Positions 5,534 through 64,000 of a stretch of 64,000 nt of DNA are shown here, one piece after another. The notes below the pieces were generated by a model, which saw only the letters and a program-made list of their open reading frames with translations, was not told where the DNA came from and did no database searches. A program made the position numbers and the translations under genes. The stretch comes from Torpedo marmorata (lineage: Eukaryota). The stretch covers positions 19,220,001-19,284,000 of the forward strand of contig OZ360231.1 of assembly GCA_977017645.1 (NCBI GenBank), written 5' to 3'. The first letter of the stretch is position 1, and each line of letters starts with the position of its first letter.

Positions 5534-8247
5534 CATTTTGGAAGGACAAACCAAGAAAGGACATACACGGTAAATGGTAGGGCACTGAGGAGTGCGGTAG
5601 AACAGAGGGACCTGGGAATACAGATACTTAATTCCCTGAAAGTGGCGTCACAGGTGGATAGGGTTGTAAAGAGAACTTTTGGCATATTGGCCTTCATAAA
5701 TCAAAGTATTGAGTACAGGAGTTGGGAGGTTATGTTAAAGTTGTAGAAGACATTGGTGAGGCCACATTTGGAGTATTGTGTGCAGTTTTGGTCACCTAAC
5801 TACAGGAAAGATATATAACCATATAACAATTACAGCACGGAAACAGGCCATTAGGCCCTTCCAGTCCGCACCGAACCAAACATTCCTATCTAGTCCCACC
5901 TACCTGCACCCTGCCCATAACCCTCCACTTCCTTCTCATCCATATACTTGTCCAACTTTTTCTTAAATAATAAAATTGACTCTGCCGCCACTACTTCTCC
6001 CGGAAGCTCATTCCACACCGCTACCACTCTCTGAGTAAAGAAGTTCTCCCTCATGTTACCTCTAAACCTCTGCCCCTTAATTCTTAGCTCATGTCCTCTT
6101 GTTTCAATCTCTCCTGTTCTTAATGGAAATAGTCTATCCACATCCAATCTGTCTATCCCCTTCATAATTTTAAATACCTCTATCAAATCCCCTCTCAACC
6201 TTCTACGCTCCAAAGAATAAAGACCTAATCTGCTCAATCTCTCCTTGTACTCTAGATTCTTAAACCCAGGCAACATTCTGGTAAACCTTCTCTGCACTCT
6301 CTCCACCTTGTTGATATCCTTCCTATAATTTGGCGACCAGAACTGCACACAGAACTCTAAATTAGGCCGCACCAAAGCCTTATATAATCTCAACATCACT
6401 TCCCAACTCCTATATTCTATGCAATGATTGATGAAGGCCAGCATACTAAAAGCCTTCTTCACCACCCTGTTCACATGAGTTTCCACCTTCAGGGAACGAT
6501 GCACCGTTATTCCTAAATGTTTCTGCTCTTCTGTATTCATCAATGCTCTCCCATTTACTACATATGTCCTGTTCTGATTCTTCCTACCAAAATGAAGCAC
6601 CTCACACTTATCAGCATTAAACTCCATCTGCCATTTTTCAGCCCACTTTTCTAAGCAGCCCAAATCCCTCTGCAATCCTTGAAAACCTTCTTCATTATCC
6701 ACTATTCCACCTATCTTAGTATCATCTGCATATTTACTAATCCAGTTTACCACCCCATCATCTAGATCATTGATATATATAACAAACAACAACGGGCCCA
6801 ATACAGATCCCTGAGGCACACCGCTGGTCACCTGCCTCCAACCTGACAGACAATTATCCACTACCACTCTCTGGCCTCTCCCTTCCAGCCAATGTTCAAT
6901 CCATTTGACTATCTCAGAATTTATACCTAAAGACTGCACCTTCCTAACTAACCTTCCATGCGGAACCTTATCGAAGGCCTTACTGACGTCCATATAGACA
7001 ACATCCACCACGCTACCCTCATCCACATTCCTAGTCACCTCTTCAAAAAATTCAATCAGATTGGTCAAACAGGACCTTCCGCTCACAAATCCGTGTTGAG
7101 AGTTCCTGATCAGACCCTGTCTATCCAGATATTTGTAAGTACTATCTCTGAGAACTTTCTCCATTAATTTACCTACCACAGACGTCAAACTTACAGGCCT
7201 ATAATTGCCAGGCTTCCTCCTTGAACCCTTTTTAAATAACGGAACCACATGCGCAATACGCCAATCCTCCGGCACTATCCCCATCTCTAATGACGTTTGG
7301 AAAATCACCGTCAGAGCCACTGCTATTTCTTCGCTTACTTCTCTCAAGGTCCTGGGGAAGATCCCATCGGGTCCCGGAGACTTATCCACCTTTATATGCC
7401 TCAAAAGCCCTAACACTACATCTTTTGTAATCCTTATATTCTCCATATTTATCCAATTTGCTTTTTTTATCTGGCATATCTCAATATCCTTCTCCTTGGT
7501 GAATACCGAAGAAAAGAAACTGTTCAATATCTCCCCCATTTCTCTAGGCTCCACACACAGTTTTCCGCTCTGATTCTCTAAGGGACCAATTTTGTCCCTC
7601 GCTTTCCTTTTACCATTAACGTATTTGTAAAAACCTTTTGGATTAATTTTCACCCTGCTTGCTATAGTCTCTTCATACCTTCTTTTAGCTTTCCTAATTC
7701 CTCTCTTAAGATTCTTTTTACATTCAATGTATTTTTCAAACATTTTTCAATAAGATAGAAAGAGTGCAGAGAAGATTTACTAGGATGTTGCCCGGACTTC
7801 AGGAACTGAGTTACAGGGAAAGGTTAAACAGGTTAGGACTTTATTCTCTGGAGCATAGAAGAATGAGGGGAGATTTGATAGAGGTATTTAAAATTATGAG
7901 GGGGATAGACAGAGTAAATGTAGATAGGCTTTTTCCACTGAGGGTAGGTGAGATACAAACCAGAGGACATGGGTTAAGAGTGAAAGGGGAAAAGTTTAGG
8001 GGGAACATGAGGGGGAACTTCTTCACACACAGAGTGGTGGGAGTGTGGAACGAGCTTCCAACTGAAGTGGTGAATGCGGGCTCAATTTTAACATTTAAGA
8101 GGAATTTGGACAGGTACATGGATGGGAGAGGTATGGAGGGCTATGGACTGGGTGCAGGTCAGTGGGACTAGGCAAAACAAAATGGTTCGGCACCGACTAG
8201 AAGGGCCGAAGGGGCCTGTTTCTGTGTTGCAATGTTCTATGGTTCTA
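5534..8247 (+). mobile_element. CR1 LINE 3' fragment (5534-5815 and 7747-8247) interrupted by an inverted CR1
   Basis: HFGRTNQERTY...YRKDI joins to NKIERVQRRFTRML...GQWD*; identical in layout to the copy at 33563-34485; (TTCTATGG)n tail. Confidence 0.88.
5816..7746 (-). mobile_element. CR1 LINE, 5'-truncated, uninterrupted 617-aa ORF2 RT region
   Basis: ORF 5890-7743: KSPGPDG, NYRPVSLTS, GVPQGSVLGPLLF, YADD; 3' UTR with (GTTATATG)n tail. Confidence 0.95.
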
Positions 8248-13132: not shown

Positions 13133-13446
13133 TACTTGGGCAGAGCAGCTCCCTTACCACGCTGTCGTGACTTGGTTGACTACCCAGCAATATTGACTCT
13201 ACCGCAAAAATAGGTGGAGATTGAAGTTCTTCTTTCTACTTTGTTCTCACCTTTGGAAAAAGTTGTTGTATCTTCCCCGTGTTTCTCAGCACCAACTTTG
13301 GACGCCTGCAGTAGGCAATAATGCGCAGGTAAAAGCATTCAGCCAGGTGTTCAATTGGCTCTCTCAGACTTGTGTGGATAAGGCGAGATCAGACTGGAGA
13401 AGACAGGATTGGTCCTCTGACAGAATTGAATGTCTTCAATAAGAGG

Positions 13447-16379
13447 GTGGTGAGAGTATGGGACGAGCTACCAGCGAAGGTGGTGAGAGTATGGGACGAG
13501 CTACCAGCGAAGGGGGTGAGAGTATGGGACGAGCTACCAGCGAAGGGAGTGAGAGTATGGGATGAGCTACCAGCGAAGGTGGTGAGAGTATGGGACGAGC
13601 TACCAGCGAAGGGGGTGAGAGTATGGGATGAGCTACCAGCGAAGGTGGTGAGAGTATGGGACGAGCTACCAGCGAAGGTGGTGAGAGTATGGGACGAGCT
13701 TCCAGCGAAGGTGGTGAGAGTATGGGACGAGCTACCAGCGAAGGTGGTGAGAGTATGGGACGAGCTACCAGCGAAGGTGGTGAGAGTATGGGACGAGCTA
13801 CCAGCGAAGGTGGTGAGAGTATGGGACGAGCTACCAGCGAAGGTGATGAGAGTATGGGACGAGCTACCAGCGAAGGTGGTGAGAGTATGGGACGAGCTAC
13901 CAGCGAGGGTGGTGAGAGTATGGGACGACCAGCGAAGGTGGTGAGAGTATGGGACGAGCTACCAGCGAAGGTGGTGAGAGTATGGGACGAGCTACCAGCG
14001 AAGGTGGTGAGAGTATGGGACGAGCTACCAGCGAAGGTGGTGAGAGTATGGGACGACCAGCGAAGGTGGTGAGAGTATGGGACGAGCTACCAGCGAAGGT
14101 GGTGAGAGTATGGGACGAGCTACCAGCGAAGGTGATGAGAGTATGGGACGAGCTACCAGCGAAGGTGATGAGAGTATGGGACGAGCTACCAGCGAAGGTG
14201 GTGAGAGTATGGGACGAGCTACCAGCGAAGGTGGTGAGAGTATGGGACGAGCTACCAGCGAAGGTGGTGAGAGTATGGGACGACCAGCGAAGGTGATGAG
14301 AGTATGGGACGAGCTACCAGCGAAGGTGGTGAGAGTATGGGACGAGCTACCAGCGAAGGTGATGAGAGTATGGGACGAGCTACCAGCGAAGGTGGTGAGA
14401 GTATGGGACGAGCTACCAGCGAAGGTGGTGAGAGTATGGGACGACCAGCGAAGGTGGTGAGAGTATGGGACGAGCTACCAGCGAAGGTGGTGAGAGTATG
14501 GGACGAGCTACCAGCGAAGGTGGTGAGAGTATGGAACGAGCTACCAGCGAAGGTGGTGAGAGTATGGGACGACCAGCGAAGGTGGTGAGAGTATGGGACG
14601 AGCTACCAGCGAAGGTGGTGAGAGTATGGGACGAGCTACCAGCGAAGGTGATGAGAGTATGGGACGAGCTACCAGCGAGGGTGATGAGAGTATGGGACGA
14701 GCTACCAGCGAAGGTGGTGAGAGTATGGGACGAGCTACCAGCGAAGGTGATGAGAGTATGGGACGAGCTACCAGCGAAGGTGGTGAGAGTATGGGACGAC
14801 CAGCGAAGGTGATGAGAGTATGGGACGAGCTACCAGCGAAGGTGGTGAGAGTATGGGACGAGCTACCAGCGAAGGTGATGAGAGTATGGGACGAGCTACC
14901 AGCGAAGGTGGTGAGAGTATGGGACGAGCTACCAGCGAAGGTGATGAGAGTATGGGACGAGCTACCAGCGAAGGTGCTGAGAGTATGGGACGAGCTACCA
15001 GCGAAGGTGGTGAGAGTATGGGACGACCAGCGAAGGTGGTGAGAGTATGGGACGAGCTACCAGCGAAGGTGGTGAGAGTATGGGACGAGCTACCAGCGAA
15101 GGTGGTGAGAGTATGGGACGAGCTACCAGCGAAGGTGGTGAGAGTATGGGACGAGCTACCAGCGAAGGTGGTGAGAGTATGGGACGACCAGCGAAGGTGG
15201 TGAGAGTATGGGACGAGCTACCAGCGAAGGTGGTGAGAGTATGGGACGAGCTACCAGCGAAGGTGGTGAGAGTATGGGACGACCAGCGAAGGTGGTGAGA
15301 GTATGGGACGAGCTACCAGCGAAGGTGGTGAGAGTATGGGACGAGCTACCAGCGAAGGTGGTGAGAGTATGGGACGAGCTACCAGCGAAGGTGATGAGAG
15401 TATGGGACGAGCTACCAGCGAAGGTGATGAGAGTATGGGACGAGCTACCAGCGAAGGTGGTGAGAGTATGGGACGAGCTACCAGCGAAGGTGGTGAGAGT
15501 ATGGGACGAGCTACCAGCGAGGGTGATGAGAGTATGGGACGAGCTACCAGCGAAGGTGGTGAGAGTATGGGACGAGCTACCAGCGAGGGTGATGAGAGTA
15601 TGGGACGAGCTACCAGCGAAGGTGGTGAGAGTATGGGACGAGCTACCAGCGAAGGTGATGAGAGTATGGGACGAGCTACCAGCGAAGGTGGTGAGAGTAT
15701 GGGACGACCAGCGAAGGTGATGAGAGTATGGGACGAGCTACCAGCGAAGGTGGTGAGAGTATGGGACGAGCTACCAGCGAAGGTGCTGAGAGTATGGGAC
15801 GAGCTACCAGCGAAGGTGGTGAGAGTATGGGACGACCAGCGAAGGTGGTGAGAGTATGGGACGAGCTACCAGCGAAGGTGGTGAGAGTATGGGACGAGCT
15901 ACCAGCGAAGGTGGTGAGAGTATGGGACGAGCTACCAGCGAAGGTGGTGAGAGTATGGGACGAGCTACCAGCGAAGGTGGTGAGAGTATGGGACGAGCTA
16001 CCAGCGAAGGTGGTGAGAGTATGGGACGAGCTACCAGCGAAGGTGGTGAGAGTATGGGACGAGCTACCAGCGAAGGTGGTGAGAGTATGGGACGAGCTAC
16101 CAGCGAAGGTGGTGAGAGTATGGGACGAGCTACCAGCGAAGGTGGTGAGAGTATGGGACGAGCTACCAGCGAAGGTGGTGAGAGTATGGGACGAGCTACC
16201 AGCGAAGGTGGTGAGAGTATGGGACGAGCTACCAGCGAAGGTGGTGAGAGTATGGGACGAGCTACCAGCGAAGGTGGTGAGAGTATGGGACGAGCTACCA
16301 GCGAAGGTGGTGAGAGTATGGGACGAGCTACCAGCGAAGGTGGTGAGAGTATGGGACGAGCTACCAGCGAAGGTGGTGG
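13447..16379 (+). repeat. 33-bp minisatellite (about 90 copies) derived from the CR1 ORF2 3' end
   Basis: Unit GTGGTGAGAGTATGGGACGAGCTACCAGCGAAG (VVRVWDELPAK) with 29-bp deletion variants; normal CR1 resumes at 16380. Confidence 0.97.
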
Positions 16380-17111: not shown

Positions 17112-17239
17112 ATACGACATCAAGGACGACAACACTCTACGCATCAAGAGGGTGAGCAATAGCGACGAGGGAACGTTCACCTGCGTTGGAGAGAACCAGG
17201 TGGGCATGGTGGAGGCGACTGCGATGCTCACCGTACGAG
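17112..17239 (+). CDS. ROBO2: Roundabout (ROBO2-type) internal coding exon, C-terminal part of Ig3 (equivalent to mammalian exon 6)
   Basis: Acceptor tgttccttcag|A and donor CGAG|gtaaga; 128 nt; encodes (R)YDIKDDNTLRIKRVSNSDEGTFTCVGENQVGMVEATAMLTVR, recognisably ROBO2 Ig3 (DxGxYxC-type motif); ends in phase 1. Confidence 0.9.
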
Positions 17240-21212: not shown

Positions 21213-22686
21213 ATAGAACAATAGAACCATAGAACATTACAGCACAGAAACAGGCCCCTTCGGTCCTTCTTGTCTGTACTGAACCATTTTTTTTGCCTAG
21301 TCCCACTGACCTGTACCCAGTCCATAGCTCTCCGTACCTCTCCCATCCATGTACCTGTCCAAATTCCTCTTAAATGTTAAAATTGAGCCCGCATTCACCA
21401 CTTCAGCTGGCAGCTCGTTCCACACTCCCACCACTCTCTGTGTGAAGAAGTTCCCCCTCATGTTCCCCCTAAACTTTTCCCCTTTCACCCTTAACCCATG
21501 TCCTCTTGTTTGTATCTCACCTACCCTCAGTGGAAAAAGCCTACCTACATTTACTCTGTCTATCCCCCTCATAATTTTAAATACCTCTATCAAATCTCCC
21601 CTCATCCGTCTATGCTCCAGGGAATAAAGTCCTAACCTGTTTAACTTTTCCCTGTAACTCAGATCCTGAAGTCTGGGCAACATCCTAGTAAATCTTCTCT
21701 GCCCTCTTTCTATCTTATTGATATCTTGCCTGTAGTTAGGTGACCAAAACTGCACACATTACTCCAAATATGGCCTCACCAATGTCTTATACAACTTTAA
21801 CACAATATCCCAACTCCTGTACTCAATACTTTGATTTATGAAGGCCAATATTCCAAAAGCTCTCTTTACACTATCCATCTGTGATGCCACTTTCTGGGAA
21901 TTATATATCTGTATTCCCAGATCCTTCTGTTCTACCGTACTCCTCAGTGCCCTACCATTTACTGTGTATGTCCTTTCTTGGTTTGTCCTTCCAAAATGCA
22001 ACACCTCACACTTGTCTGCATTAAATTCCATCTGCCATTTTTCAGCCCATTTTTCCAGCTGGTCCAGATCCCTCTGCAAGCTTTGAAAACCTTCTTCACT
22101 GTCCACAACACCTCCAATCTTAGTGTCATCTGCAAACTTGCTGATCCAATTTACCACTTTATCGTCCAGATCATTGATATAGATGACAAACAACAATGGT
22201 CCCAGCACAGATCCCTGAGGCACACCACTAGTCACAGGCCTCCAGTCTGAGAAGCAATCATTCACCACTACTCTCTGGCTTCTCCCATCCAGCCTTTGTT
22301 GAATCCAGTTCACTACTTCACCATGAATACCTAGCGTCTGAACCTTCCTGACTAACCTCCCATGCGGGACCTTTTCAAAGGCCTTACTAAAGTCCATGTA
22401 GACCACATCCACAGCCTTTGCTTCGTCAACGTTCCTGGTAACCTCCTCGAAAAACACTATAAGATTGGTTAAACACGACCTACCATGCACAAAGCCATGT
22501 TGACTATCCCTAATCAGTTTCTGGCTATCCAAATAATTGTATATCCGACCTTCCAATAATTTACCTACTACTGACGTCCGACTCACCGGCCTATAATTTC
22601 CAGGGTTACTTTTGGAGCCTTTTTTAAACAACGGAACAACGTGAGCTACCCTCCAATCCTCTGGCACCTCACCCGTGGCTAAGGAC
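21213..22686 (-). mobile_element. CR1 LINE, 5'-truncated, nested in an older CR1 fragment (~21157-21212 and 22687-23320)
   Basis: ORFs 21759-22667 and 21297-21755 (FADD, GVPQGSVLGP), one in-frame stop, (CATAGAAC)n tail. Confidence 0.92.
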
Positions 22687-25210: not shown

Positions 25211-25462
25211 TTTTTTAATTTTTGAGATACAGCACAGTTAACAGGCCCTTCCGGCCCACAAGCCCGTGCCGCCCAAATACTTCAATGAACCTGCAACCCC
25301 TCCCCCATACGTTTTTAGAGGGTGGGAGCTAACTGGAGCACCCAGAGGAAACCCACGCAAGACACGGGGAGGATGTACAAATTCCTTACAGACAGCGCCA
25401 GATTCGAACCCAGGTCCCTGGCGCTGTGAAAGCATTGCACTAACCGTTGTGCTAACCATTGC
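25211..25462 (-). mobile_element. V-SINE (HE1-like), diverged
   Basis: B-box and V-domain on the reverse strand. Confidence 0.8.
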
Positions 25463-26634
25463 CAAACTAGATCAAAACCTCACAATTTGGGTCACTGCCA
25501 TTAAATGTCCCCTTAGTTGTGTCCAAATGAGCTCCACTCCCACTGTCTTGTCAAACACAGTCCCATTCCCATTCCCTGCAGTGCGCACTGGGCCCCTGGT
25601 TACACATGGGGGCCAATGGATTAAAGTCACAGCCCAAGGATGTGAGAAGCCCCAGTGTCAGTCCGCTGATGCCCCACTGGATGGATTCCGTGTTCCTTGG
25701 GCCTGGCGTGCTCACTCACGGGAGACGTGGCTGGGGTGTTGGGCAAGAGGTGCTAGTCAGTGTCCACTCTCCTTGAACAAGGCTCCACAACGAAGCGTCC
25801 CATTTCCCAGTAAGTGTGGAGGTTGGGTCAGGGCAAAGTGACCGCTCTGTTCTCTCCTGAACTCCACTCCATGGTGATGAACAGTTAAAGGAGATGTCTG
25901 TTGAATATGTAATTTTCCATTATGTAACTGCATGCACCAATTTATCAAATCTCTCTTGAAAGGTTGTGTTTATAAACTTTTACATCTGATTTTTAGTGAT
26001 GCACTGATTATTCTTTGAAAGAAGTCATTCACACTCAACTGCTCCGATCTTGGTTTGTCCAGACAGCTTCTTGCTGCCCGGGATGTAATATTCGAGTACA
26101 AGATAGGACACCATCCCTTTTCTTCTCCCTTACCATATAATTTCCCTCATCTCTCCCCTATTCCCTCCACACACCCTTCCCTCCACATGCCTTGCCCGAC
26201 CTCCCATGTCCCTCAGTCCATTTCCACCAACCTACTCCCTCCCTTGCTGAACCCTTCTCCCCCAGACTCGCTTCCACAGCCACTGCTCCCCATCTGCCCT
26301 CCCTGCCACTCTTGAGCTCCACCACCATGTACTCATCCAGACTCGCTTCCACAGCCACGTGTCCTTCCTGCCTACTTGTCTCTGTCGCCATCTGGTGCCC
26401 TGTGGATTCCAGCTCCGGTTCCAGGCCTCCTCTGTGCAAGACCTCCCAAATCCCTACTTCACCCCCACCTCCCCACCCCTTTACATTTTCGCTCAACTCT
26501 CCCACCTCCCCTCTCCAGGTATTCCTCCCACCACCTCATCTCCTGGCCAGAAGCATGGGGCTCACCATCTCTTCAGGAAGGAGAGCAAACATTCAATCAG
26601 GAGAACGACCCTATTGGTATTTGGAACTGTTGAG

Positions 26635-26824
26635 TGTTAAATGATGTAATCCATCCTCATGTGTACACATTGTATGCTTCATTCATTCTAACTTCATGAT
26701 TTCTCTATTTTTTTTTCCTTTTAAAACAAATTGTCAATTCCTTTGTTATCTCCACCTACTCCATTGTGCCCCGTCTCCAGCACACCCAGTTGGTAAGTAA
26801 TCATCATCCCTTTCATGTGGCATG
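26635..26824 (+). promoter_or_regulatory. Splicing regulatory region of the microexon: distal branch point, U-rich tract, UGC motif, YCAY (Nova) clusters, GCAUG
   Basis: No AG from 26635 to 26778; CTAAC 26688-26692; T-rich tract 26701-26722; TGC 26767-26769; YCAY at 26651, 26657, 26679, 26683, 26694, 26761, 26801, 26804, 26813; GCATG 26820-26824. Confidence 0.7.
26781..26792 (+). CDS. ROBO2: 12-nt alternative microexon (exon 6b equivalent) in the Ig3-Ig4 linker, adds AHPV
   Basis: ccgtctccag|CACACCCAGTTG|gtaagt; phase 1-1; with the upstream G reads GCA CAC CCA GTT G = A H P V, against ARPV in mammalian Robo2 e6b; long AG-free acceptor region and YCAY clusters. Confidence 0.85.
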
Positions 26825-27157
26825 ACTGTAAGTGCTTGGATCTCTCGCTCTTGGCCTCTGTTCATTCACCTGCTCTTTGTATAACCAGGGGTGGTGTTGG
26901 GGCGGCAATACAAAGGCAGAAAATCGCGGCATCTCCACGAGGGATTAGAGGCCCACCTTGGCAGCAGGGAGAGGCTGGATGGAGTTGTGCAGCAGCAAGA
27001 ATTGTCGGCGAAAAGAGAACCTGACTCGTTGAATTCCTGGGACAGTTTAATTGATCTATCTTGAATGTGTTTGAAAGAAAATGGATAGATATGTCTCTGC
27101 TGTGAAGTGTTAGATGATCTATCAGATGGCCTGAAGGCACCTGAATTATATTGTGGA

Positions 27158-27670
27158 CCACACCCTGACACTCAAATACAGATGCACACATGCATGCACA
27201 CATGCACGCACACATGCACGCACACATGCACACACTGACACTCAAATACAGATGCACTCTCACACACATGCACACGCGCGCACAGACACACACGAGTGCA
27301 CATGCATGCGGACATGCGCGTGCACATATACATACGCACATGCACGCACACATACCAGCACGCGCACAGGCACGCGCACACTCACATACATACACACTCG
27401 CCACCGCTCACACCCCCACTCTCTCTCACAGTCATGCATTCAATTACACCAAAATATTTACACACATGTAGAGACTTTACACATGCGCTCATACACAATT
27501 AATCAGAGAGAAAATGTGAGCCTGCACACAGATGTATGTGTGCACACACAAACAGCGCACACTCAACACACACATATGTGCATGCATTTCCATACACAGT
27601 TTACACATGCAAGCCACAATGCAGATAATAATGTACATGAGTGCATATGTACACACACGTGCACACAGGC
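27158..27670 (+). repeat. Degenerate (CA)n-rich low-complexity tract
   Basis: CACACATG/CACG motifs; CTGACACTCAAATACAGATGCAC occurs twice. Confidence 0.85.
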
Positions 27671-28081: not shown

Positions 28082-28770
28082 AGAATCAGAATCAGGTTTA
28101 TTGTCATGAATGTGTCACAAAATTTGTTGAGAGAGGAGTAAAACACGGAAGTCTGCAGACGCCATGATTGAAGTAAAGTATGCTGTTTGACCTGCTGAGT
28201 TTCTCCAGCATTGTGTTTTTATTCCATGAAATTTCTTGTTTTGCGGCAGCAGTATTGTGCAGAACAAGGTGCAAAATTACTGTAAATTACAATTCCGTAA
28301 ATACAAGATTTAAAAAAAATAAATAACTAGTTCAAAAAAGAAAAAAAGTGAGGTTAATGTCCGTGGTTCATTGTCCATTCAGAAACCTGATGGCGGAGGG
28401 GAAGAAGCTGTTTTTGTACCGTTGGGTGTTCATCTTCAGGCTCCTGTACCTCCCTCCTGATGGTAGCAGTGTGAAGAGGGCATGGCCTGGGTGGTGAGGG
28501 ACCTTGAGGATAGAGGCTGCTTTCTTGAGACACCGCCTCTTGTAGATGTCTTTAATGGAGTGGAGACTGATGCCCGTGATGACACTGGCTGAGTTCACAA
28601 CTCTCTGTAGCCTGTTCCTGTCCTGTGCATTGGCATCTCCATACCAGACAGTGATGCAACCAGTCAGAATGCTCTCCATGGTACACCTGTAGAAATTTGC
28701 AAGAGTCTTTGATGACGTACCAAATCTCCTCAAAATCCTCACGAAATATAGAGGCAGCAGAGTTTGTAGC
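28082..28770 (-). mobile_element. Rex1/Babar-like LINE 3' fragment with a short Penelope-derived insert (~28138-28222)
   Basis: ORF 28368-28787(-): [19 protein letters not shown]...HPGHALFTLLPSGGRYRS; (GATTCT)n tail. Confidence 0.85.
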
Positions 28771-29968
28771 AGCAAAGATGCACACATCAGGATACTCTTT
28801 ATCGACTATAGTTCGGCATTTAACACCATCAACCCCTCAAAACTGATCAGCAAACTCCAAGACCTGGGAGTTAACACCCCACTGTGTAATTGGATCATGG
28901 ATTTCCTCACCTCCAGACCACAATCAGTGAAGATTGGTAAGAACTTCTCCACAATCTCCATCAGTACCGGAGCAGCACAGGACTGTGTTCTTAGCCCCCT
29001 GCTCTACTCACTTTACACCTATGACTGTGTGGCTTGGTACGACAATAACACCATCTACAAATTTGCCTACGGTACCACGGTAGTGGATTGTATAAAGGAA
29101 GGGGACGAGTCAGCATACAGGATGGAGATTGAAAACTTGATTGAATGGTGCACCAACAACAACCTTGCACTCAATGTCACCAAAACTAAGGAGCTGATTG
29201 TTGACTTCAGGAAAGGAAAGCCAGAGGTATACAATCCAGTGATCATTGGGGGATCAAAGGTGGAGAGGGTGAGCAAATTTAGGTTCTTGGGAGTCACTAT
29301 CTCGGAGGATCTTTCCTGGACCCAACACACCAATGGCATCATGAAGAAAGCACGTCAGCACCTCTACTTCCTCAGGAGTTTGCGGAGGTTTGGTATGACA
29401 TCAGAAACCCTGGCAAATTTCTACAGAGGTGTGGTAGAAAGTGTGCTGACCGGCTGCATCACAGTCTGGTATGGGAACACCAATACCCCTGAATGTAAAG
29501 CCCTCCAAAAGGTAGTGGACACAGCCCAGGACATCACAGGCAAAACCCTCCCCACTATTGAGTACATCTACAGGGAACGCTGCTGTCGGAGAGCAGCAGC
29601 AATCATCAAAGACCCTCACCACCCAGCACACGCTCTGTTCTCGCTGTTGCCATCAGGAAAGAGGTATAGGTGCCACAAGACTCGCACCACCAGGTTCAGG
29701 AACAGCTGCTACCCCTCCACCATCAGACTCCTCAATAACAAACTCAATCAGAGACTCATTTAAGGACTTTATTGATTTTCTTTTTGTTCTCTCTGTATTG
29801 CACAGTCAGTTTATTTACAGTTCTTTGTTTGTTTACATGTTTTACGCTGTATACAGTTTAATTTTTGCACAACCAATTAGTGGTAATTCTGCCGCGCCCG
29901 CAGGAAAAAGAATCTCAGGGTTGTATGTGACGTCATGTGTGTACTCTGACAATAAATCTGAAATCTGA
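28770..29968 (+). mobile_element. Rex1/Babar-like LINE, 5'-truncated RT
   Basis: [44 protein letters not shown]; ends gacaataaatctgaaatctga. Confidence 0.92.
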
Positions 29969-38529: not shown

Positions 38530-38654
38530 CTGCCCCTCAGTTTGTCGTCCGGCCGAGGGATCAGATCGTGGCCCAGGGCCGCTCAGCTACCTTCCCCTGC
38601 GAGACGAAAGGAAATCCTCAACCAGCCATCTTCTGGCAGAAGGAAGGCACCCAG
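38530..38654 (+). CDS. ROBO2: ROBO2-type exon, N-terminal half of Ig4 (exon 7 equivalent)
   Basis: Pyrimidine tract then gaccctcag|CT; donor CAG|gtaggt; 125 nt; [42 protein letters not shown]; phase 1 start fits the upstream exons. Confidence 0.93.
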
Positions 38655-40822: not shown

Positions 40823-41769
40823 GAGAAATAATGGCTCCGGGATAACAGGGAGAAATTCCTAAACCTCAGCAAATTAGCGATTGTGTGCAGGCATGGTAAG
40901 GCAGTGCGGAACTCCCTCAGCGTTGCACTGCGTACGTCAGAGACTGGACGTGAACCCACCACCTTCTGACTCGAGAGATGAGCGTGCTTCACACTGAGCT
41001 ACTGACAGGGCCAGTTGGAAGGCAAACAACAGTGCCAAAGAACGACACCAGTCGTGAAATCTTCCTTCCTCTCGCATCGCCTCCAAAGTGTGTATTTATA
41101 TTTGTTCAAAAAAACTTACCGGGTTGTAGGTTAATTGGGTGTAATTGGGCGGCACGGGCTCGTGGGCCGAAAGGGCCTGTTACCATGCTGTATGTCTAAA
41201 TTTTAAAAAAAAATTAATATAGCTTCTTTGTCAATGTTCTAGACCAGGGGTGGCCAACCTTTTAATTTTTCATTTCGACATACAGCACGGTAACAGGCCC
41301 TTTCGGATCACGAGCCCGTGCCACCCAATTAACCTACACCCCCGGTACGTTCATGGGAGCTTGAGCACTTTCAGCTGTGGGAAAGACAGAGACTGTTTAA
41401 TCGAGTGCTTCATCAAAGAACTGGATGTAGAATATAGTACAGCACAGGAAAAAGCCCTTCGGCCCACAATGTCTGTGCTGAGCATGATGCCCCTGGTTCT
41501 ATCACATTTGAAATCCTGTTTTCCCATCACCCTGGACTCCCATCAATTTGCCTATCACATCAACAGGTCAACTGAGGAAGCCATCTCCACGGCACTTCAC
41601 TCTGCCTTGACCCACTTGGACAGCTCCAACTCTTATGTCAGAATGCTGTTCATTGACTTTAGTTCGGCATTCAATAATGTGATTCCCTCCAAACTGATCA
41701 CCAAACTTCGACAGCTTGGTATCAGCTCATCCCTCTGCAATTGGACCTTGGACTTTCTGACTAACAGAC

Positions 41770-42595
41770 TAACAGGCCTCACCTTCGTCCCCCTCCGCCA
41801 ACACCTCAACGAGTTCCGCGCACGCCGTGATGCCGAACTCTTCTTCCGTCGCCTCCGCCTCCGGGCTCACTTCCATGACCGTGACTCTCCACCCCCCACC
41901 CAAGACCCTTTCTCCCGCTTCAAGCCATCTTCCTCTTCCTGGACACCTCGCCCTGGCCAGCTGCCCGCTCTGGACCTTTTTATTTCCAACTGCTGCCGAG
42001 ACATCAACCGTCTCAACTTCACCACCCCCCTCTCGTATTCCAACCTCACCTCCTCAGAACGCTATGCCCTCCACTCTCTCCGCAACAATCCCAACCTCAC
42101 CATCAAACCCGCAGACAAGGGCGGTGCGGTTGTTGTCTGTCTGGCACACTGACCTCTACCTTGCCGAGACCAGTCGACTGCTCTCAGACACCTCCTCCTA
42201 CCGACCCTTCCCACAGGACCCCACCACTGCACATCAAGCCACTGTCTCCAACACCATCTCCGACCTCATCACCTGCGGTCACCTCCCCTCCACGGCCACC
42301 AACCTCATTCTCCCCCACCCCCGCACTGCCTGTTTCTACCTTCTACCCAAGATACACAAACCCAACCATCCGGGCAGACCTCTTTGCTGCTGTCCCCTCC
42401 CTCCTTTCTCCACCTATCATCTCCTGCCTTTGCCACCCCCCTTCTCCCCTCACTCTTTTCTTCGGACGCCTGCCGGCATTTTCTCATACTTTGATGAAGG
42501 GCTCAAGCCCGAAACGTCGGTTATGTATTTCTAGCTTTGCTACATAAAAGACACTGTTTGACCTGCTGAGTTTCTCCAGCATTTGTGTTTTTTAC
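41770..42595 (+). mobile_element. Internally deleted Penelope-like element (ORF N-terminal region joined to terminal repeat)
   Basis: GLTFVP...[11 protein letters not shown]...[33 protein letters not shown]; terminal repeat with hammerhead-like motif. Confidence 0.85.
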
Positions 42596-42704: not shown

Positions 42705-45700
42705 CTTAATAACAGAGACGTGGCGACACCCACTTATCCCAGACGTAGCCATTGAGCTAGCAGGCCGCACAGCATTTCGCTGGGATAGAAACAAAGACTC
42801 CGGTAAGCGCAAGGGATGGGGGTTATGCATTTACATACACAACGACTGGTGCACTAATACCAAGATCATAGACAGACACTGTTCTTCTGACTTGGAGTAC
42901 CTGACAGTTAAATGCAGGCCTATTTACCTTCCACGTGAGCTTATCATTGTTATAGTCGCAGCAGTTTACATTCCACCGGATGCTAACGCTAGCATAGCTT
43001 TAGGCTACCTGCTCAGTGCTATAAATTCACAACAGAGCACCTATCCCGAAGCAGCCCATATCATAGCCGGTGATTTTAACCATGCAGATCTAAGGGCAGT
43101 TCTCCGGAAATTTGAACAACACATCAAATGTGCTACTAGGGGGAAAAACACACGAGATAAGGTTTATTCAAATATTAGGAACGGTTTTAGGTCAACATCA
43201 CTACCACACATAGGCCAGTCAGACCACCTATCCATATTCTTAACCCCAGCATACACTCCCCTCAGGAGAAACGTTCAACCCATCACAAAGACTGTTAAGA
43301 CATGGCCTGAAGGAGCTTCCTTTCAGCTGCAGGGTTGCTTTGAAAGGACTAACTGGGACATTTTTGAGGACCAGGACTTGGAGGAGTTCACATCAACTGT
43401 ACTCTGCTACATACAGAGCTGTGTTGACAATGTCACCGTCAACAAACACATCCGGGTGTACTCCAACCAGAAACCCTGGATGACAAAGGAAGTCAAAATT
43501 CTCCTCAAGGACCATAACAACGCCTTCAGGTCTGGCGACAGAGCCCTATACAGCGCTGCTAGAGTTAAACTGAGGAGAGGCATCAGGGATGCTAAATCGG
43601 CCTACAAGAAGAAGATCGAGGACCACTTCACCAATAACGACCCACGGCGTGTGTGGCAAGGCATCCAGCACATCACTAACTATAAGATCAGCAATAACCA
43701 TATAACATTTACAGCACAGAAACAGGCCAGTTCGGCCCTTCTAGTCCATGCCGACCACATTCTCCCACCTAGTCCCACTGACCCGCACCCGGCCCATAAC
43801 CCTCCACACCTCTCTCGTCCATATACCTATCCAATGTTTCCTTAAACATTAAAATTGAACCTGCATCTACCACTTCGGCCGGAAGCTCGTTCCACCCTCC
43901 CACCACCCTCTGAGTGAAGAAATTCCCCCTCATGTTTCCTCTAAACTTTTCCCCCTTCAATCTCAATCCATGCCCTCTTGTTTGAATCTTCCCCTCTCTC
44001 AATGGAAAAAGCCTGTCCACATTGACTTTATCTTTCCCCTTCATAATTTTAAATACCTCTATCAAATCACCCCTCAACCTTCTACGCTCCAGGGAATAAA
44101 GTCCCAGCCTGTTCAACCTTTCCCTATAACTCAAACCCAGAAACCCAGGCAACATTCTTGTAAATCTCCTCTGCACTCTCTCTATTCTGTTTATATCCTT
44201 CCTATAATTCGGCGACCAAAACTGCACACAATATTCCAAATTTGGCCTCACCAATGCCTTATATAACTTCAACATGACATCCCAACTCCTATATTCAATA
44301 CTCTGATTTATGAAGGCCAACATACCAAATGCTTTCTTCACCACCCTATCTACGTGTGACTCAACTTTCAGGGAATTATGTACCAGAATTCCTAAATCCC
44401 TCTGTTCTACTGCACTTCTCAATTGTCTTCCATTTAACATGTATGACCTTTGCTGATTAATCCTACCAAAATGTAGCACCTCACATTTATCAGTATTAAA
44501 TTCCATCTGCCATGTTTCCGCCCACTCTTCTAACTGTCCAATATCCCCCTGCAAGCTTTGATATCCCTCTTCACTGTCCACAACACCACCAATCTTCGTA
44601 TCATCTGCATACTTACTAATCCAATTTACCACCCTATCATCAAGATCATTAATATATATGACAAACAACAATGGACCCAGTACCGATCCCTGAGGCACTC
44701 CACTAGTCACCGGCCTCCAATTTGACAAACAATTTTCCACCACTACTCTCTGGCATCTCCTATCCAACCATTGATGAATCCATTTCACTACTTCGTCGTT
44801 AATACCTAATGCTTGAACCTTCCTAACGAGCCTCTTATGCGGAACCTTGTCAAATGCCTTACTGAAGTCCATATAGACAACATCCACAGCCTTCCCCTCG
44901 TCAACCCTCTTAGTAACCTCATCGAAAAACTCTATGAGATTTGTCAAACATGATCTACCATGAACAAAACCGTGTTGACTACTCCTAATCAATGCTTGTC
45001 TTTCCAAATAACTGTATACACCATCTCTAAGAACACTCTCCATTAATTTACCTACCACCGATGTCAGACTCACAGGCCTATAATTTCCAGGTTTACTTTT
45101 GGAGACCTTCTTAAACAGCGGGACAACATGAGCTACCCTCCAATCCTCCGGCACCTCCCCCGTGGCCAGTGACATTTTAAATATTTCTGTCAGAGCCCCC
45201 ACTATTTGTACACTAACCTCCCTCAGGGTTCTCAGGAATATCCTGTCAGGACCTGGAGATTTATCCACCTTTATACTCTTTAAAATAGCCAATACTACCT
45301 CTCATTAATCTTTATATTATCCATGACCTCACTGCCAGATTTCCTTACCTCACCTGGCTCAATATTCCTTTCCTTTGTAAATACTGAAGAAAAAAATTCA
45401 TTTAAAATCTCCCCCATCTCCTCTGACTTCTCACATAGCCTACCCGTCTGATCCTCAACAGTCGTACGGCTGTCGACGGTGATGCCTCGCTGGCAGAGGA
45501 ACTTAACTGTTTCTTTGCTCGCTTTGAGGTGAAAGCAGCGGAGACAGACATAACACTTCCACTAGCCTCCAACAGTCACATCCTCACTGTGCAAGAGCAT
45601 GACGTGCAGTGTGTGCTTAGAGCGGTGAATCCGAGAAAAGCTGCCGGCCCAGATGGTGTGACAGGAAGGGTGCTGAAGGAATGTGCAAACCAGCTCTCCG

Positions 45701-47360
45701 AAGTCTTCACAAAGATCTTCAACCTGTCCCTGTCTACATCCACCATCCCACCTCGCCTGAAGTCTGCCACAATCATTCCACTGCCGAAAAAGACAGTCAT
45801 CAGCGGCCTCAACGATTACCGTCCGGTAGCACTCACACCGGTCATCATGAAGTGCTTCGAGAGGCTGGTCTTACAGCATATCAAAGCCAGCCTCCCACCC
45901 ACCTTTGACCCATACCAGTTTGCCTACAGAGCAAATAGGTCCACAGAGGACACCATTGCCACTGCTCTTCACACTGCACTGACTCACCTTGAACATCAGG
46001 GGAGCTATGTGAGGATGCTTTTTATAGACGTTAGCTCTGCCTTTAACACCGTCATCCCGGGCAGACTGGTTACCAAACTTAACGACTTAGGATTTTCCCA
46101 ACCCACCTGCTACTGGATCAAGGACTTTCTGACCAATCGCCCCCAGACTGTGAGATTAGGCCCTCACCTTTCCTCCACCCTTAAACTCAGCACCGGCTCT
46201 CCACAGGGCTGTGTGTTGAGCCCCATTCTCTATGCCCTCTACACTCATGACTGTGCCCCCACTCATTCCAACAACACCATCATCAAGTTCGAGGACGACA
46301 CGACTGCGGTTGGACTTATCTCAGGAGGAGACGAGACAGCCTACAGGGATGATGTCCAAAGACTGACAGCGTGGTGTTCAGAGAACAATCTCGTCCTGAA
46401 CTCCTCAAAGACAAAAGAACTCATAATAGACTTCCGGAAGAACAGTGCAGACCCCGACCCACTATACATGAACTGTGTGGAAAGGGTCACTGCTTTCAGG
46501 TTTCTGGGTACACACATCGCAGGAGACCTCTCCTGGTCTACCAACACCACCTCAGTAGTCAAGAAGGTACAGCAGCGACTCCACTTCCTGAGCATTCTCA
46601 GGAAAATCAATCTACAGGAGAAGCTGCTAATGTCCTTCTGCCGCTGCTCCATCGAGGGTGAGCCGGCATACTGTATTCCTGCGTGGTATGCCAGCTGCTC
46701 AGCAGCGGACAGGAGAGTTCTTCAGAGGGTCATCAATATCGCTCAGAAGATCATCGGCTGCTCACTGCCCTCTTTGGAGGATTTATTCAGCACTCGCTGC
46801 CTCAGTAGAGCAGCCAACATACGGAAAGACCCATCCCACCTTGGACATCATCTGTTTGAGCGGCTGCCCTCTGGTAGACACTTCAGGTCCATTAAATCAC
46901 GGACAAACAGACTTAAGAACAGCATCTACCCCAGAGCCATACGAGAACTGAACACTGCCAAGCATTGGTTGGGATCTGTGTGACTCTCAGCACTACAATA
47001 CTACAGTCACACCTATAGAACAGTTGTATACAATTACAACTGCACCTTTTTATGCATATATTCCGGACTGCATTATTTGTATATAGAGCCACTACATTAC
47101 AACTCCACTTTGTATGTAAATATTCCCAACTGCACTACTTGTATAGAGGGCCACTGCAATTTTCAATTCTAGTAAATGTGCAATATCCAGAAGTGCAATA
47201 TTTCAATATCTCAGTTGCTTTCGTATTGTTTTGTTTTATATCTTATTGTTTTCATTTTTTATTTTTTAATTGCTGTTTGATTTGTGTGAATGCACCGTTA
47301 GGATTGCTAATTAATTTTGTTGTAGTCTGTGCAATGACAATAAAGGAATATCAATCAATC
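42705..47360 (+). mobile_element. Long Rex1/Babar-like LINE (APE endonuclease plus RT), split by a CR1
   Basis: TETW, VYIPP, IIAGDFNH, GQSDH (42892-43690); RT ORF 45529-46983 with KAAGPDG, DYRPVALT, PQGCVLSP, FEDD; (ATCA)n tail. Confidence 0.92.
43695..45456 (-). mobile_element. CR1 LINE, 5'-truncated, open 507-aa RT region
   Basis: ORF 43769-45292(-), YADD, GVPQGSVLGPLLF; (GTTATATG)n tail. Confidence 0.95.
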
Positions 47361-48286
47361 CTGTATGTGGTTCTAATTCCATAATCAAGTTTGCAGATGA
47401 CACCACGGTGGTTGGCCTGATCAGAGGGGATGATGAGACGGCCTATAGGGATGAGGTCCAGCACCTGGCCTTGTGGTGTGCTGACAACAACTTGGCACTT
47501 AACACTCAGAAGACCAAGGAGATCATTGTGGACTTCAGGCGTGCTGGAAGCCACACTCATGCCCCGATTTACATCAATGGAGATGTGGTGGAACGTGTAT
47601 CAAGCTTCAAATTCCTTGGTGTCCACATTTCCGATGATCTCACCTGGTCCCTGAACTCCTCCATCCTGATCAAAAAGGAGCAACAACGCCTTTATTTCCT
47701 GCGGAGCATCAAGAAAGTACATCTCTGTCCCAGGATATTGATGGATTTTTACCGCTGTACCATTGAGAGCATACTCACCTATGGCATCTCAGTGTGGTAT
47801 GGCAATTGTCTCGTATCGGACCGTAAAGCACTTCAGCGGGTGGTAAAAACTGCCCAGCGGATTATCAGCATCCAATTGCCCACCATTGAGAACATCTATC
47901 AGGAACGCTGTCTGGGCAGGACGAAGAGCATCATCAAGGATGCATCTCACCCTAACTATGGACTTTTTACTCTCCTTCCATTCGGTAGGCGCTACAGGAG
48001 CCTTCGCTCTCGAACCAGCAGGGTCAAGAAGAGCTTTTTTCCCGAGGTGGTGACCTTGCTGAACCTTAAATCACAGCGCTGAGTGGTACTGCACTCACAT
48101 TGTACTGTCAGTACTTTTATGATTGTTTGCTTGCTGAATGCGCTTGTTTTTATTCACACGTAGTTATTTGTATTTGTATATAGCACTATTTTTTAACTTC
48201 TGGTTGGATGCTAATTGTATTTCATTGGCTTTGTATTTTACTTAGCACAATGACAATAAAGTTGAATCTAATCTATCTAATCTATA

Positions 48287-51144: not shown

Positions 51145-51316
51145 AACCTGTTGTTTCCCAACCAGCCACCGCAGCCATCCAGCCGCTTGTCGGTGTCCTC
51201 CAAAGGTGACCTGACCATCAGCAACATCCAGAGGTCCGATGCCGGTTACTACATCTGCCAGGCTCTCACCGTGGCAGGCAGCATTCTCGCCAAGGCTCAA
51301 CTGGAAGTCACTGACG
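51145..51316 (+). CDS. ROBO2: ROBO2-type exon, C-terminal half of Ig4 (exon 8 equivalent)
   Basis: tctcccttccag|AAC ... GACG|gtaagg; 172 nt; [57 protein letters not shown]; phase 0 start matches the previous exon. Confidence 0.93.
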
Positions 51317-54855: not shown

Positions 54856-56365
54856 GTGTGTGTCTGTGTGTGCATATGTCATTGTGTGTCATTGTGTGTG
54901 CGTGTGTGTGTGTGTGTCATTGTGTGTGCGTGTGTGTATGTGTGTCATTGTGTGTGCCATTGTGTGCGTGTGTCATTGTGTGCGTGTGCCATTGTGTGCG
55001 TGTGCCATTGTGTGCGTGTGTCATTGTGTGTGCGTGTGTGTGTGTTGTGTGTGCGTGTGTGCCATTGTGTGTGCGTGTGTGCGTGTCATTGTGTGTGCGT
55101 GTGTCATTGTGTGTGTGTGTGTCATTGTGTGTGTGTGCGTGTGTCATTGTGTGTGCGTGTGTCATTGTGTGTGCGTGTGTGTCATTGTGTGTGTGTCATT
55201 GTGTGTGTGTGTCATTGTGTGTGTGTCATTGTGTGTGTGTGTGTGTGTCATTGTGTGTGTGCATGTCATTGTGTGTGTGCGCGTGTGTGCCATTGTGTGT
55301 GTGTCATTGTGTGTGTGCGTCATTGAGTGTGCGTGTCATTGTGTGTGCGTGTGTCATTGTGTGTGCGCGTGTCATTGTGTGTGTGTGCATGTCATTGTGT
55401 GTGTGTGCGTGTGTGCCATTGTGTGTGTGTCATTGTGTGTGTGCGTGTCATTGAGTGCGTGTCATTGTGTGTGCGTGTCATTGTGTGTGCGTGTCATTGT
55501 GTGTGCGTGTCATTGAGTGTGCGTGTCATTGTGTGTGTGCGTGTCATTGTGTGTGTGCGTGTCATTGTGTGTGTGTGCATGTGTCATTGTGTGCACGCGT
55601 GTCATTGTGTGCGCGCGTGTCATTGTGTGCGCGCGTGTCATTGTGTGCGCGCGTGTCATTGTGTGCGCGCGTGTCATTGTGTGCGCGCGTGTCATTGTGT
55701 GCGAGCGTGTCATTGCGCGTGTGTCATTGTGTGCGCGCGTGTCATTGTGTGCGCGCATGTCATTGTGTGCACGCGTGTCATTGTGTGCGCACGTGTCATT
55801 GTGTCCGCGTGTCATTGTGTCCGCGTGTCATTGTGTCCGCGTGTCATTGTGTCCGCGTGTCATTATGTCCGCGTGTCATTGTGTGTGCACGCGTATCATT
55901 GTGTGTGCGCGCGTGTCATTGTGTGTGCGCGTGTCATTGTGTGCGCGCGTGTCATTGTGTGCGCGCGTGTCATTGTGTCCGCGCGTCATTGTGTCCGCGC
56001 GTCATTGTGTCCGCGCGTCATTGTGTCCGCGCGTCATTGTGTGTGCGTGTGTCATTGTGTGCGTGTGTCATTGTGTGTGTGCGCGCGCGTGTCGTTGTGT
56101 GCGTGCGCACGTGTCGTTGTGTGCGCGCGTGTCGTTGTGTGCGCGCGTGTCGTTGTGTGCGCGCGTGTCGTTGTGTGCGCGCGTGTCGTTGTGTGCGCGC
56201 GTGTGTCGTGTGAGCGCGTCGTTGTGTGTGCGCGTGTCGTGTGTGCGCGTGTCGTGTATGTGCGCGTCATTGCGTGCGTGTGTGTCATTTGTGTGTGTGT
56301 GCATGTGTGTCATTTGTGTGTGTGTGTGTGTGATTTGTGTGTGTGTGCGTGTCATTGTGTGTGTG
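54856..56365. repeat. (TG)n-derived minisatellite punctuated by GTCATT
   Basis: Units such as GTCATTGTGTGCGCGCGT, about 14-24 bp. Confidence 0.95.
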
Positions 56366-56729
56366 AAGAATTTTTAAATAACACAATGGCACAGCTATTA
56401 GACGCTCCTTGCAGGAGTATAAATCACTGGGTTGTCCTCGACAGGAGACCTGGAGTTCTGAGCACCACACTTTGGGAAGGATTTCATTCCCTTGTTGAAG
56501 GTGAAGAAGAGATGTGGGGGTGGACTGGTCATAAGTTCTGGTTGCAGACAAACCTGAAGGAAAATTTAATAGTTGCTTCAGTGGTGAGGCGTTTTGAATT
56601 GTTTATTGAATTGATTTTATATTGTCATGTACTGAGATAGAGTGAAAAGCTTCATTACAGTGCTATCCAGGCGAGTCAACCTATCAAGGTTCCAAAGGCT
56701 CCTTTTATTGTCACATGGCAACGGGAGGT

Positions 56730-62700: not shown

Positions 62701-64000
62701 AGGGGAGGGTGTGTGATGGAGGGTAGGGTGTGTGTGATGGAGGGGAGGGTGTGTGTGATGGAGGAGAGGGTGTGTGTGATGGAGGGGAGGGTGTGTGATG
62801 GAGGGTAGGGTGTGTGTGATGGAGGGGAGGGTGTGTGTGATGGAGGGGAGGGTGTGTGTGATGGAGGGGAGGGTGTGTGTGATGGGGAGGGTGTGTGTGA
62901 TGGAGGGGAGGGGTGTGTGTGATGGAGTTGATGGAGGGGAAGGTGTGTGTGATGGAGGGTAGGGTGTGTGTGATAGAGGGGAGGGGTGTGTGATGGAGGG
63001 TAGGGTGTGTGTGATGGAGGGGAGGGTGTGTGTGATGGAGGGGAGGGTGTGTGTGATGGGGAGGGTGTGTGTGATGGAGGGGAGGGGTGTGTGTGATGGA
63101 GTTGATGGAGGGGAGGGTGTGTGTGATGGAGTTGATGGAGGGGAAGTTGTGTGTGATGGAGGGGAGGGGTGTGTGTGATGGAGGGGAGGGTGTGTGTGAT
63201 GGAGGGGAGGGTGTGTGTGATGGGGAGGGTGTGTGTGATGGAGGGGAGGGGTGTGTGTGATGGAGGGGAGGGTGTGTGTGATGGGGATGGTGTGTGTGAT
63301 GGAGGGGAGGGGTGTGTGTGATGGAGTTGATGGAGGGGAGGGGTGTGTGTGATGGAGTTGACGGAGGGGAAGGTGTGTGTGATGGAGGGGAGGGGTGTGT
63401 GTGATGGAGGGGAGGGGTGTGTGTGATGGAGGGGAGGGTGTGTGTGATGGAGGGGAGGGATGTGTGTGATGGAGGGTAGGGTGTGTGTGATGGAGGGGAG
63501 GGTGTGTGTGATGGAGGGAAGGGTGTGTGATGGAGGGGAGGGTGTGTGTGATGGAGGGGAGGGTGTGTGTGATGGAGGGGAGGGTGTGTGTGATGGGGAG
63601 GGTGTGTGTGATGGAGGGGAGGGGTGTGTGTGATGGATTTGATGGAGGGGAGGGTGTGTGTGATGGAGTTGATGGAGGGGAAGGTGTGTGTGATGGAGGG
63701 TAGGGTGTGTGTGATGGAGGGGAGGGGTGTGTGATGGAGGGTAGGGTGTGTGTGATGGAGGGGAGGGGTGTGTGATGGAGGGTAGGGTGTGTGTGATGGA
63801 GGGGAGGGTGTGTGTGATGGGGAGGGTGTGTGTGATGGAGGGGAGGGGTGTGTGTGATGGAGTTGATGGAGGGGAGGGTGTGTGTGATGGAGTTGATGGA
63901 GGGGAAGGTGTGTGTGATGGAGTTGATGGAGGGGAGGGTGTGTGTGATGGAGGGGAGGGTGTGTGTGATGGAGGGGAGGGTGTGTGTGATGGGGAGGGTG
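56730..64000. repeat. G-rich satellite, core 21-bp GATGGAGGGGAGGGTGTGTGT with 18/22/30-bp variants; runs off the window
   Basis: More than 7 kb of tandem units, almost no C on the + strand. Confidence 0.97.

Follow-up and report, generated by a model that had tools for sequence, protein, structure and literature searches.

The 21.3-kb intron that separates the Ig3 and Ig4 exons of the Robo2 gene in this ray was found to contain a 12-nt microexon, CACACCCAGTTG, at positions 26781-26792 of the forward strand. We interpret it as the ray orthologue of Robo2 exon 6b, which is alternatively spliced and goes back to the last common ancestor of jawed vertebrates, and put the probability of this reading at about 0.9. 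That the microexon is real and orthologous to Robo2 exon 6b is close to certain, and the first-pass annotation had named it correctly from the raw sequence. An orthologous exon has been published, and the public gene models of the closest relatives of this ray already include the microexon. Its occurrence in mammals and chick, its inclusion in the gene models of most sequenced sharks and rays, and the conservation of neural microexons as a class from shark to human (described in the accessible text of PMC10987577 and bioRxiv 2024.09.17.613571) were already known. What is added here is an explicit minimum age, with the Robo2 exon being at least as old as the jawed-vertebrate ancestor, for which we found no printed statement in the literature searched.

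The microexon and its host gene

The window, which is the whole 64-kb stretch of DNA analyzed, contains three constitutive Robo2 exons together with the microexon and its extended splicing region:

17112..17239, forward strand: Robo2 constitutive exon 6, second half of Ig3, with a phase-1 end
26635..26780, forward strand: extended 3' splice-site region with a 144-nt AG-free zone, a U-rich tract and the acceptor CAG
26781..26792, forward strand: 12-nt cassette microexon encoding AHPV, the Robo2 exon 6b orthologue, identified from its splice sites and from Narcine RefSeq isoforms with and without AHPV
26793..26870, forward strand: downstream flank of the microexon with the consensus donor GTAAGT, five YCAY motifs and a GCATG at +28
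38530..38654, forward strand: Robo2 constitutive exon 7, first half of Ig4
51145..51316, forward strand: Robo2 constitutive exon 8, second half of Ig4

The microexon reads ccccgtctccag/CACACCCAGTTG/gtaagt in the window. Both flanking introns are of phase 1 (exon 6 ends in CGA G/gtaaga and exon 7 starts with cag/CT GCC), giving a phase 1-1 microexon with canonical AG and GT boundaries. The inclusion product, LTVR-AHPV-AAPQF, is free of stops and the skipping product, LTVR-AAPQF, is also open. The position, consensus donor, phase and preserved frame that had been claimed for the microexon all proved exact when the sequence was read again. Upstream of the acceptor, a putative branch point was found by motif match (CTAAC, with its A at 26691, or -90) and a TGC occurs at -14. 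Exon 6 codes for the latter half of one I-set Ig domain, matching positions 54-90 of the 90-position Pfam I-set model, and exons 7 and 8 together supply the complete following domain; exon 9 was not found within the 64-kb window.

A bare AG..GTRAG unit is by itself weak evidence for an exon, since 57 units of this kind that preserve the frame and measure 3-51 nt occur in the intron, and 42 of these have no stop. This abundance speaks in favor of regarding the microexon as a chance AG/12 nt/GT arrangement in a long intron that is never spliced. However, when the unit scored was AG, 12 nt and GT and the encoded peptide was required to fit the pattern [AV][RHYL]PV taken from homologues, exactly one unit was found on both strands of the window, namely the microexon itself, where 0.0085 units would be expected in the intron and 0.05 in the window (both strands). 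The microexon also has the highest pyrimidine content before its AG among the 42 stop-free units (16 of 20), and its 144-nt AG-free zone is the longest both among these units, where the runner-up has 43 nt, and among all 1470 AGs of the intron. Self-comparison of the window showed that window-internal repeats cover 40% of the intron but spare the 1.7 kb in which the microexon is located (25457-27168). No other microexon-like unit in the window has homologue support in the Narcine isoforms compared, whereas the near-identical Narcine proteins carry the same AHPV. A chance origin is therefore in effect refuted by the homologue data, and we regard it as barely conceivable.

Three further features of this region were noted. 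A second perfect GTAAGT is found at 26828-26833, 35 nt 3' of the microexon and immediately after the GCATG; its use would give a 47-nt out-of-frame exon, making it a possible candidate for a decoy or poison variant. A CAG within the microexon (26787-26789) is a candidate second acceptor that would yield a 3-nt exon, and the linker expected from such an exon was absent in 89 chondrichthyan proteins. The RNA structure predicted around the microexon showed no excess over shuffled sequences (z -0.42; 62 of 200 shuffles fold as well).

The host gene had been taken to be Robo2 and the source a cartilaginous fish, and both assignments are borne out by comparison with the electric ray Narcine bancroftii. 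Over the three window exons, 138 of 140 residues are identical to its RefSeq robo2, the two substitutions being one in exon 6 (41/42) and one in exon 8 (56/57), while exon 7 is identical throughout (41/41). Among the best 120 of 1713 matches, a 100% match was found only for Narcine bancroftii robo2, and the best PDB match of exon 7 is ROBO2. In four other rays and sharks, 36-39 of the 41-42 residues are identical for each of exons 6 and 7. The ray is accordingly an electric ray or a near relative of that group, and the two substitutions point to a species close to Narcine bancroftii or to a different haplotype.

We also considered whether the host gene could be Robo3 or another ohnologue, in which case the microexon would be an exon 6b of a paralogue for which no such exon is known. 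Exon 6 gives some room for this reading, as its identity to mouse Robo2 (28/42) is little above that to bat Robo3 (25/41). Exons 7 and 8, on the other hand, are 90% (36/40) and 89% (51/57) identical to mouse Robo2 against 70% (28/40, bat Robo3) and 64% to Robo3. An IQ-TREE tree was built from 33 Robo ectodomain segments, the window gene being represented by the Narcine protein P0135. This protein falls into the Robo2 clade (100/100), where seven chondrichthyan proteins join those of bichir, teleosts and amniotes, while Robo3 forms its own clade (100/100) and three teleost Robo1-like sequences group together at 100/99. The tree was drawn without tetrapod Robo1, Robo4 and shark paralogues other than robo2, and the missing chondrichthyan Robo1, Robo3 and Robo4 can be counted in favor of the Robo3 reading. 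Nevertheless, Robo3 is ruled out as host gene by the tree and the exon identities, and we consider a paralogue other than Robo2 very improbable.

In Narcine RefSeq robo2 models (for example P0135, residues 1-390), the first Ig domain is preceded by an unusually long and repetitive N-terminal extension, which varies in length and may be a gene-model artefact.

Occurrence of the insert in jawed vertebrates and hagfish

The Narcine RefSeq isoforms carry an AHPV insert identical to that encoded in the ray window. It is present in thirteen of the fifteen isoforms listed (27 in the cluster), for example XP_069745174.1, and skipped in the other two, for example XP_069745205.1. Among 89 listed proteins from seventeen shark and ray species, 71 contain AHPV, ARPV, AYPV or VHPV and 18 skip the insert; large protein clusters were sampled here (15 of 65, 15 of 34 and 15 of 18) and the count omits P0249, a partial Scyliorhinus torazame model whose junction is broken. 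An insert of the form xxPV was thus found in fifteen of the seventeen species. Five species (Narcine, Mobula hypostoma, Chiloscyllium punctatum, Scyliorhinus canicula and Carcharodon) have both forms at the level of gene models, and the remaining ten insert-bearing species have only the inclusion form among the proteins listed. The inclusion form was absent among the listed proteins of Scyliorhinus torazame (0/6) and Cetorhinus (0/1). In Scyliorhinus canicula, isoforms X4 and X5 differ solely by these four residues. Paired RefSeq isoforms that are four residues apart most likely rest on RNA reads. The isoform counts mirror model assembly and not the level of inclusion. The microexon had been described as hidden from annotation; this description does not hold, as the RefSeq protein models of Narcine and fourteen other sharks and rays already contain it.

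The best 120 of 1713 matches comprise 58 proteins with an xxPV insert, 58 that skip it and four with other linkers. The jawed-vertebrate proteins sampled are without chimaera or gar. ARPV was found in bichir, teleosts, gecko, waterfowl, marsupials and placentals, and the insert of mouse RefSeq Robo2 is VRPV; ARPV, which had been given as the mammalian Robo2 peptide, is thus the usual form in mammals but not the one in mouse RefSeq. The variants of AHPV observed are ARPV, VRPV, AYPV, VHPV and ALPV. In these variants the proline and valine are invariant across species, and the second residue is histidine in most sharks and rays, tyrosine in Heterodontus and Heptranchias, arginine in Mobula rays (ARPV) and in bony vertebrates, and leucine in some characiform robo2-like copies.

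An origin of Robo2 exon 6b before the split of cartilaginous and bony fishes, which the first-pass annotation had proposed, is well supported by these sequences because the xxPV insert occurs in sharks and rays (15 of 17 species) and, as ARPV or VRPV, across bichir, teleosts, reptiles, birds and mammals.

Comparison with the described exons agrees with the assignment to Robo2 exon 6b. The accessible text of Johnson, Junge and Chen 2019 (PMC6687390) describes exons 6b of 9 and 12 bp in Robo1 and Robo2, located between Ig3 and Ig4, and states their conservation for mammals and chickens. The ray exon is found in the same gene and at the same Ig3-Ig4 junction as the mammalian and chick Robo2 exon 6b and has the same length of 12 nt. 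Both encode four residues ending in PV and have YCAY motifs in both flanks. The host intron is long in both cases, with 21 kb in the ray and a span of about 25 kb in mouse Robo2. The two differ in the peptide, which is AHPV in the ray and ARPV or VRPV in mammals and chick, and in that the link to Nova is drawn by analogy in the ray. The equivalence to exon 6b that had been put forward for the microexon therefore stands on junction, length and peptide. The mammalian Robo1 exon 6b occupies the same junction and is described as homologous and Nova-repressed (PMC6687390); it differs from the ray exon in belonging to another gene, in its length of 9 nt and in carrying the knockout phenotype in mouse. 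We found no published report of a Robo exon 6b in fish, shark or hagfish in the literature searched, outside which most subscription papers lie, and the accessible parts of PMC12308364, PMC7821500, PMC11758566 and bioRxiv 2026.09.05.749416 contain nothing on a fish Robo exon 6b. The exon tables of Irimia 2014, Torres-Mendez 2019 and VastDB, also outside the literature searched, may list the exon in elephant shark.

An insert at the same Ig3-Ig4 junction was also observed in hagfish, where EGSY (residues 312-315) occurs in the gene annotated as 'robo1-like'. Two of three Myxine glutinosa models from RefSeq contain it (P0354 and P0211, against P0351 without), as do two of three Eptatretus burgeri models from UniRef (P0352 and P0353, against P0355 without), and EGSY is the only difference between Myxine robo1-like X1 and X2. 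All eight Myxine and all three Eptatretus models of the 'robo2-like' hagfish gene are free of an insert. No junction insert was seen either in the displayed proteins of mammalian Robo3 (four), Fundulus robo3, amphioxus (one), Ptychodera (fifteen) and tick (three). If the intron is of phase 1 as in the ray, the simplest reading would be that EGSY is encoded by a separate 12-nt exon, because donor read-through would start with glycine and an upstream acceptor would end in AG.

EGSY bears no resemblance to xxPV. The hagfish gene that contains it forms a long, unresolved branch in the IQ-TREE tree; the best match of its cytoplasmic part is a teleost Robo1-like protein (80 bits, against 42 or less for others), which is weak evidence of a Robo1 affinity. 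When the hagfish junction region was used as a query for Robo1 relatives in lamprey or gnathostomes, the sole match among 40 candidates was the cluster of the hagfish proteins themselves. We consider the odds evenly balanced that a microexon in the Robo Ig3-Ig4 hinge is pan-vertebrate and may have arisen twice. With two origins, the xxPV exon of Robo2 would have arisen in jawed vertebrates and converged on an older exon of the Robo1 lineage; alternatively, with a single origin, the exon would predate the Robo1/Robo2 duplication and would have been lost in Robo3 and in the hagfish Robo2-like gene. In both cases, the use of a microexon to tune the Ig3-Ig4 hinge would go back to the ancestor of vertebrates, and the hagfish insert turns the choice between single and double origin into a directly testable question.

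Two unusual linkers, HGELSVP in a turtle Robo3 and HGENSSLP in an Arapaima robo1-like protein, were set aside as single models with no skipping partner. Both inserts start with Gly-Glu and would be explained by read-through of a GTGAG donor.

Regulation and function of the exon

The accessible text of PMC6687390 describes how Nova represses exon 6b of Robo1 and Robo2 through 7-10 YCAY motifs located on both sides of it. According to the same text, the inclusion form prevails early and then declines. Robo2 exon 6b is among the NOVA2 targets in PMC4930328, and inclusion of the ROBO1 microexon falls in chick brain (PMC12871342). In the ray, twelve YCAY motifs were found within 26630-26900, seven of them upstream (-130 to -20) and five downstream (+9, +12, +21, +70 and +74). 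Ten YCAY motifs occur in 200 nt at the microexon, a number reached in 40 of 1055 windows of the intron (top 4%; mean 3.7), but it is not above that of dinucleotide shuffles (mean 8.9, P=0.36, 2000 shuffles). YCAY enrichment was accordingly rejected as proof of Nova control.

By analogy with the described exons, we consider it probable that Nova represses the microexon in the ray. As judged from mouse, the strong donor and the long AG-free 3' region with its distant branch point would lead to inclusion by default. Nova1 and Nova2, rising in maturing neurons, would then repress the exon by binding to the YCAY motifs that flank it on either side, and its shutting off as neurons mature would lower Robo2 signalling. 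Because Nova represses exon 6b, the mature brain may be the place where inclusion is lowest.

The splice signals also resemble those of the neural microexons controlled by SRRM3/4, which are described as combining a strong donor with a distant branch point and a UGC placed between this branch point and the AG (bioRxiv 2024.09.17.613571). The ray microexon matches this architecture by motif (TGC at -14, CTAAC with its A at -90 and GTAAGT), and like the exons of this class it falls in the range of 3-27 nt and preserves the frame (PMC10987577; bioRxiv 2024.09.17.613571). SRRM3/4 microexons are, however, switched on in neurons, whereas exon 6b declines with neuronal maturation in rodents and, for ROBO1, in chick. 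Given the TGC at -14 and the far branch point, SRRM3/4 may contribute to its control. The orthologous exon could thus be mostly included in cartilaginous fishes and not switched by Nova, or be an SRRM3/4-driven neural microexon. This would fit the prevalence of inclusion in shark and ray models (71 of 89 proteins, and inclusion only in ten of the fifteen species, among the proteins listed), the SRRM3/4-like arrangement and the YCAY frequency no higher than in shuffles. Against this, the isoform counts track model assembly and not the inclusion level, skipping forms exist in five species, YCAY motifs lie on both sides as in mouse, and a TGC trinucleotide is common by chance. We consider these alternatives to Nova repression unlikely.

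With regard to function, the microexon is a cassette exon with strong core signals that adds four residues to the Ig3-Ig4 hinge. Robo isoforms with and without exon 6b are described as binding Slit2 equally but differing in signalling (PMC6687390). Inclusion in the ray would by inference from mouse lengthen the hinge by four residues, leave Slit binding unchanged and strengthen signalling. The accessible part of a review (PMC7171467) describes Ig4 as a dimerisation domain, which domain 7 covers when Robo2 is folded into its auto-inhibited hairpin. A longer hinge could loosen this hairpin, in which the Ig4 dimerisation surface lies under domain 7; such a release of Ig4 from auto-inhibition is a tentative hypothesis, to which we give clearly less than even odds. 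Among the 17 PDB matches, the insert is lacking in the three displayed alignments that extend across the junction, those of 6iaa, 5ope and 5o5g.

The microexon had also been assigned a role in midline crossing. This overstates the case for Robo2. The midline-timing phenotype in mouse stems from Robo1 exon 6b, and deletion of Robo2 exon 6b alone leaves crossing and tract position unchanged in mice that are indistinguishable from wild type (PMC6687390). The same source describes Robo2 exon 6b as having no effect once exon 21 is included. Exon 6b of Robo2 is likely to adjust repulsion mildly, with some redundancy towards the exon-21 cassette, and not to act as a decisive midline switch. Four residues and an elaborate splice region have been kept for so long with no knockout phenotype in mouse spinal commissures, and this long retention suggests that Robo2 exon 6b matters somewhere beyond these commissures.

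An alternative 40-residue intracellular cassette was noted in Narcine robo2 (P0135, residues 1419-1458). It matches a 42-residue teleost cassette and is probably the equivalent of exon 21, the second Nova-sensitive exon of Robo2.

Repeats in the window

Seven fragments matching the RVT_1 model were annotated, all of them intronic:

5890-7746, reverse strand: RVT_1 fragment
21762-22685, reverse strand: RVT_1 fragment
28693-29760, forward strand: RVT_1 fragment
41223-42149, forward strand: RVT_1 fragment
43769-45301, reverse strand: RVT_1 fragment
45439-46980, forward strand: RVT_1 fragment
47315-48079, forward strand: RVT_1 fragment

These fragments are consistent with LINE-type retroelements, and three of the seven also match the short ALKBH8_N model. 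A homogeneous 33-bp minisatellite with 90 copies and 95% matches lies just upstream of exon 6 (13446-16378). Towards the end of the window, about 9 kb (54903-63992) are taken up by low-complexity tandem arrays with periods of 18, 21, 30 and 82 bp, which show an extreme strand skew with a GC skew near 0.98.
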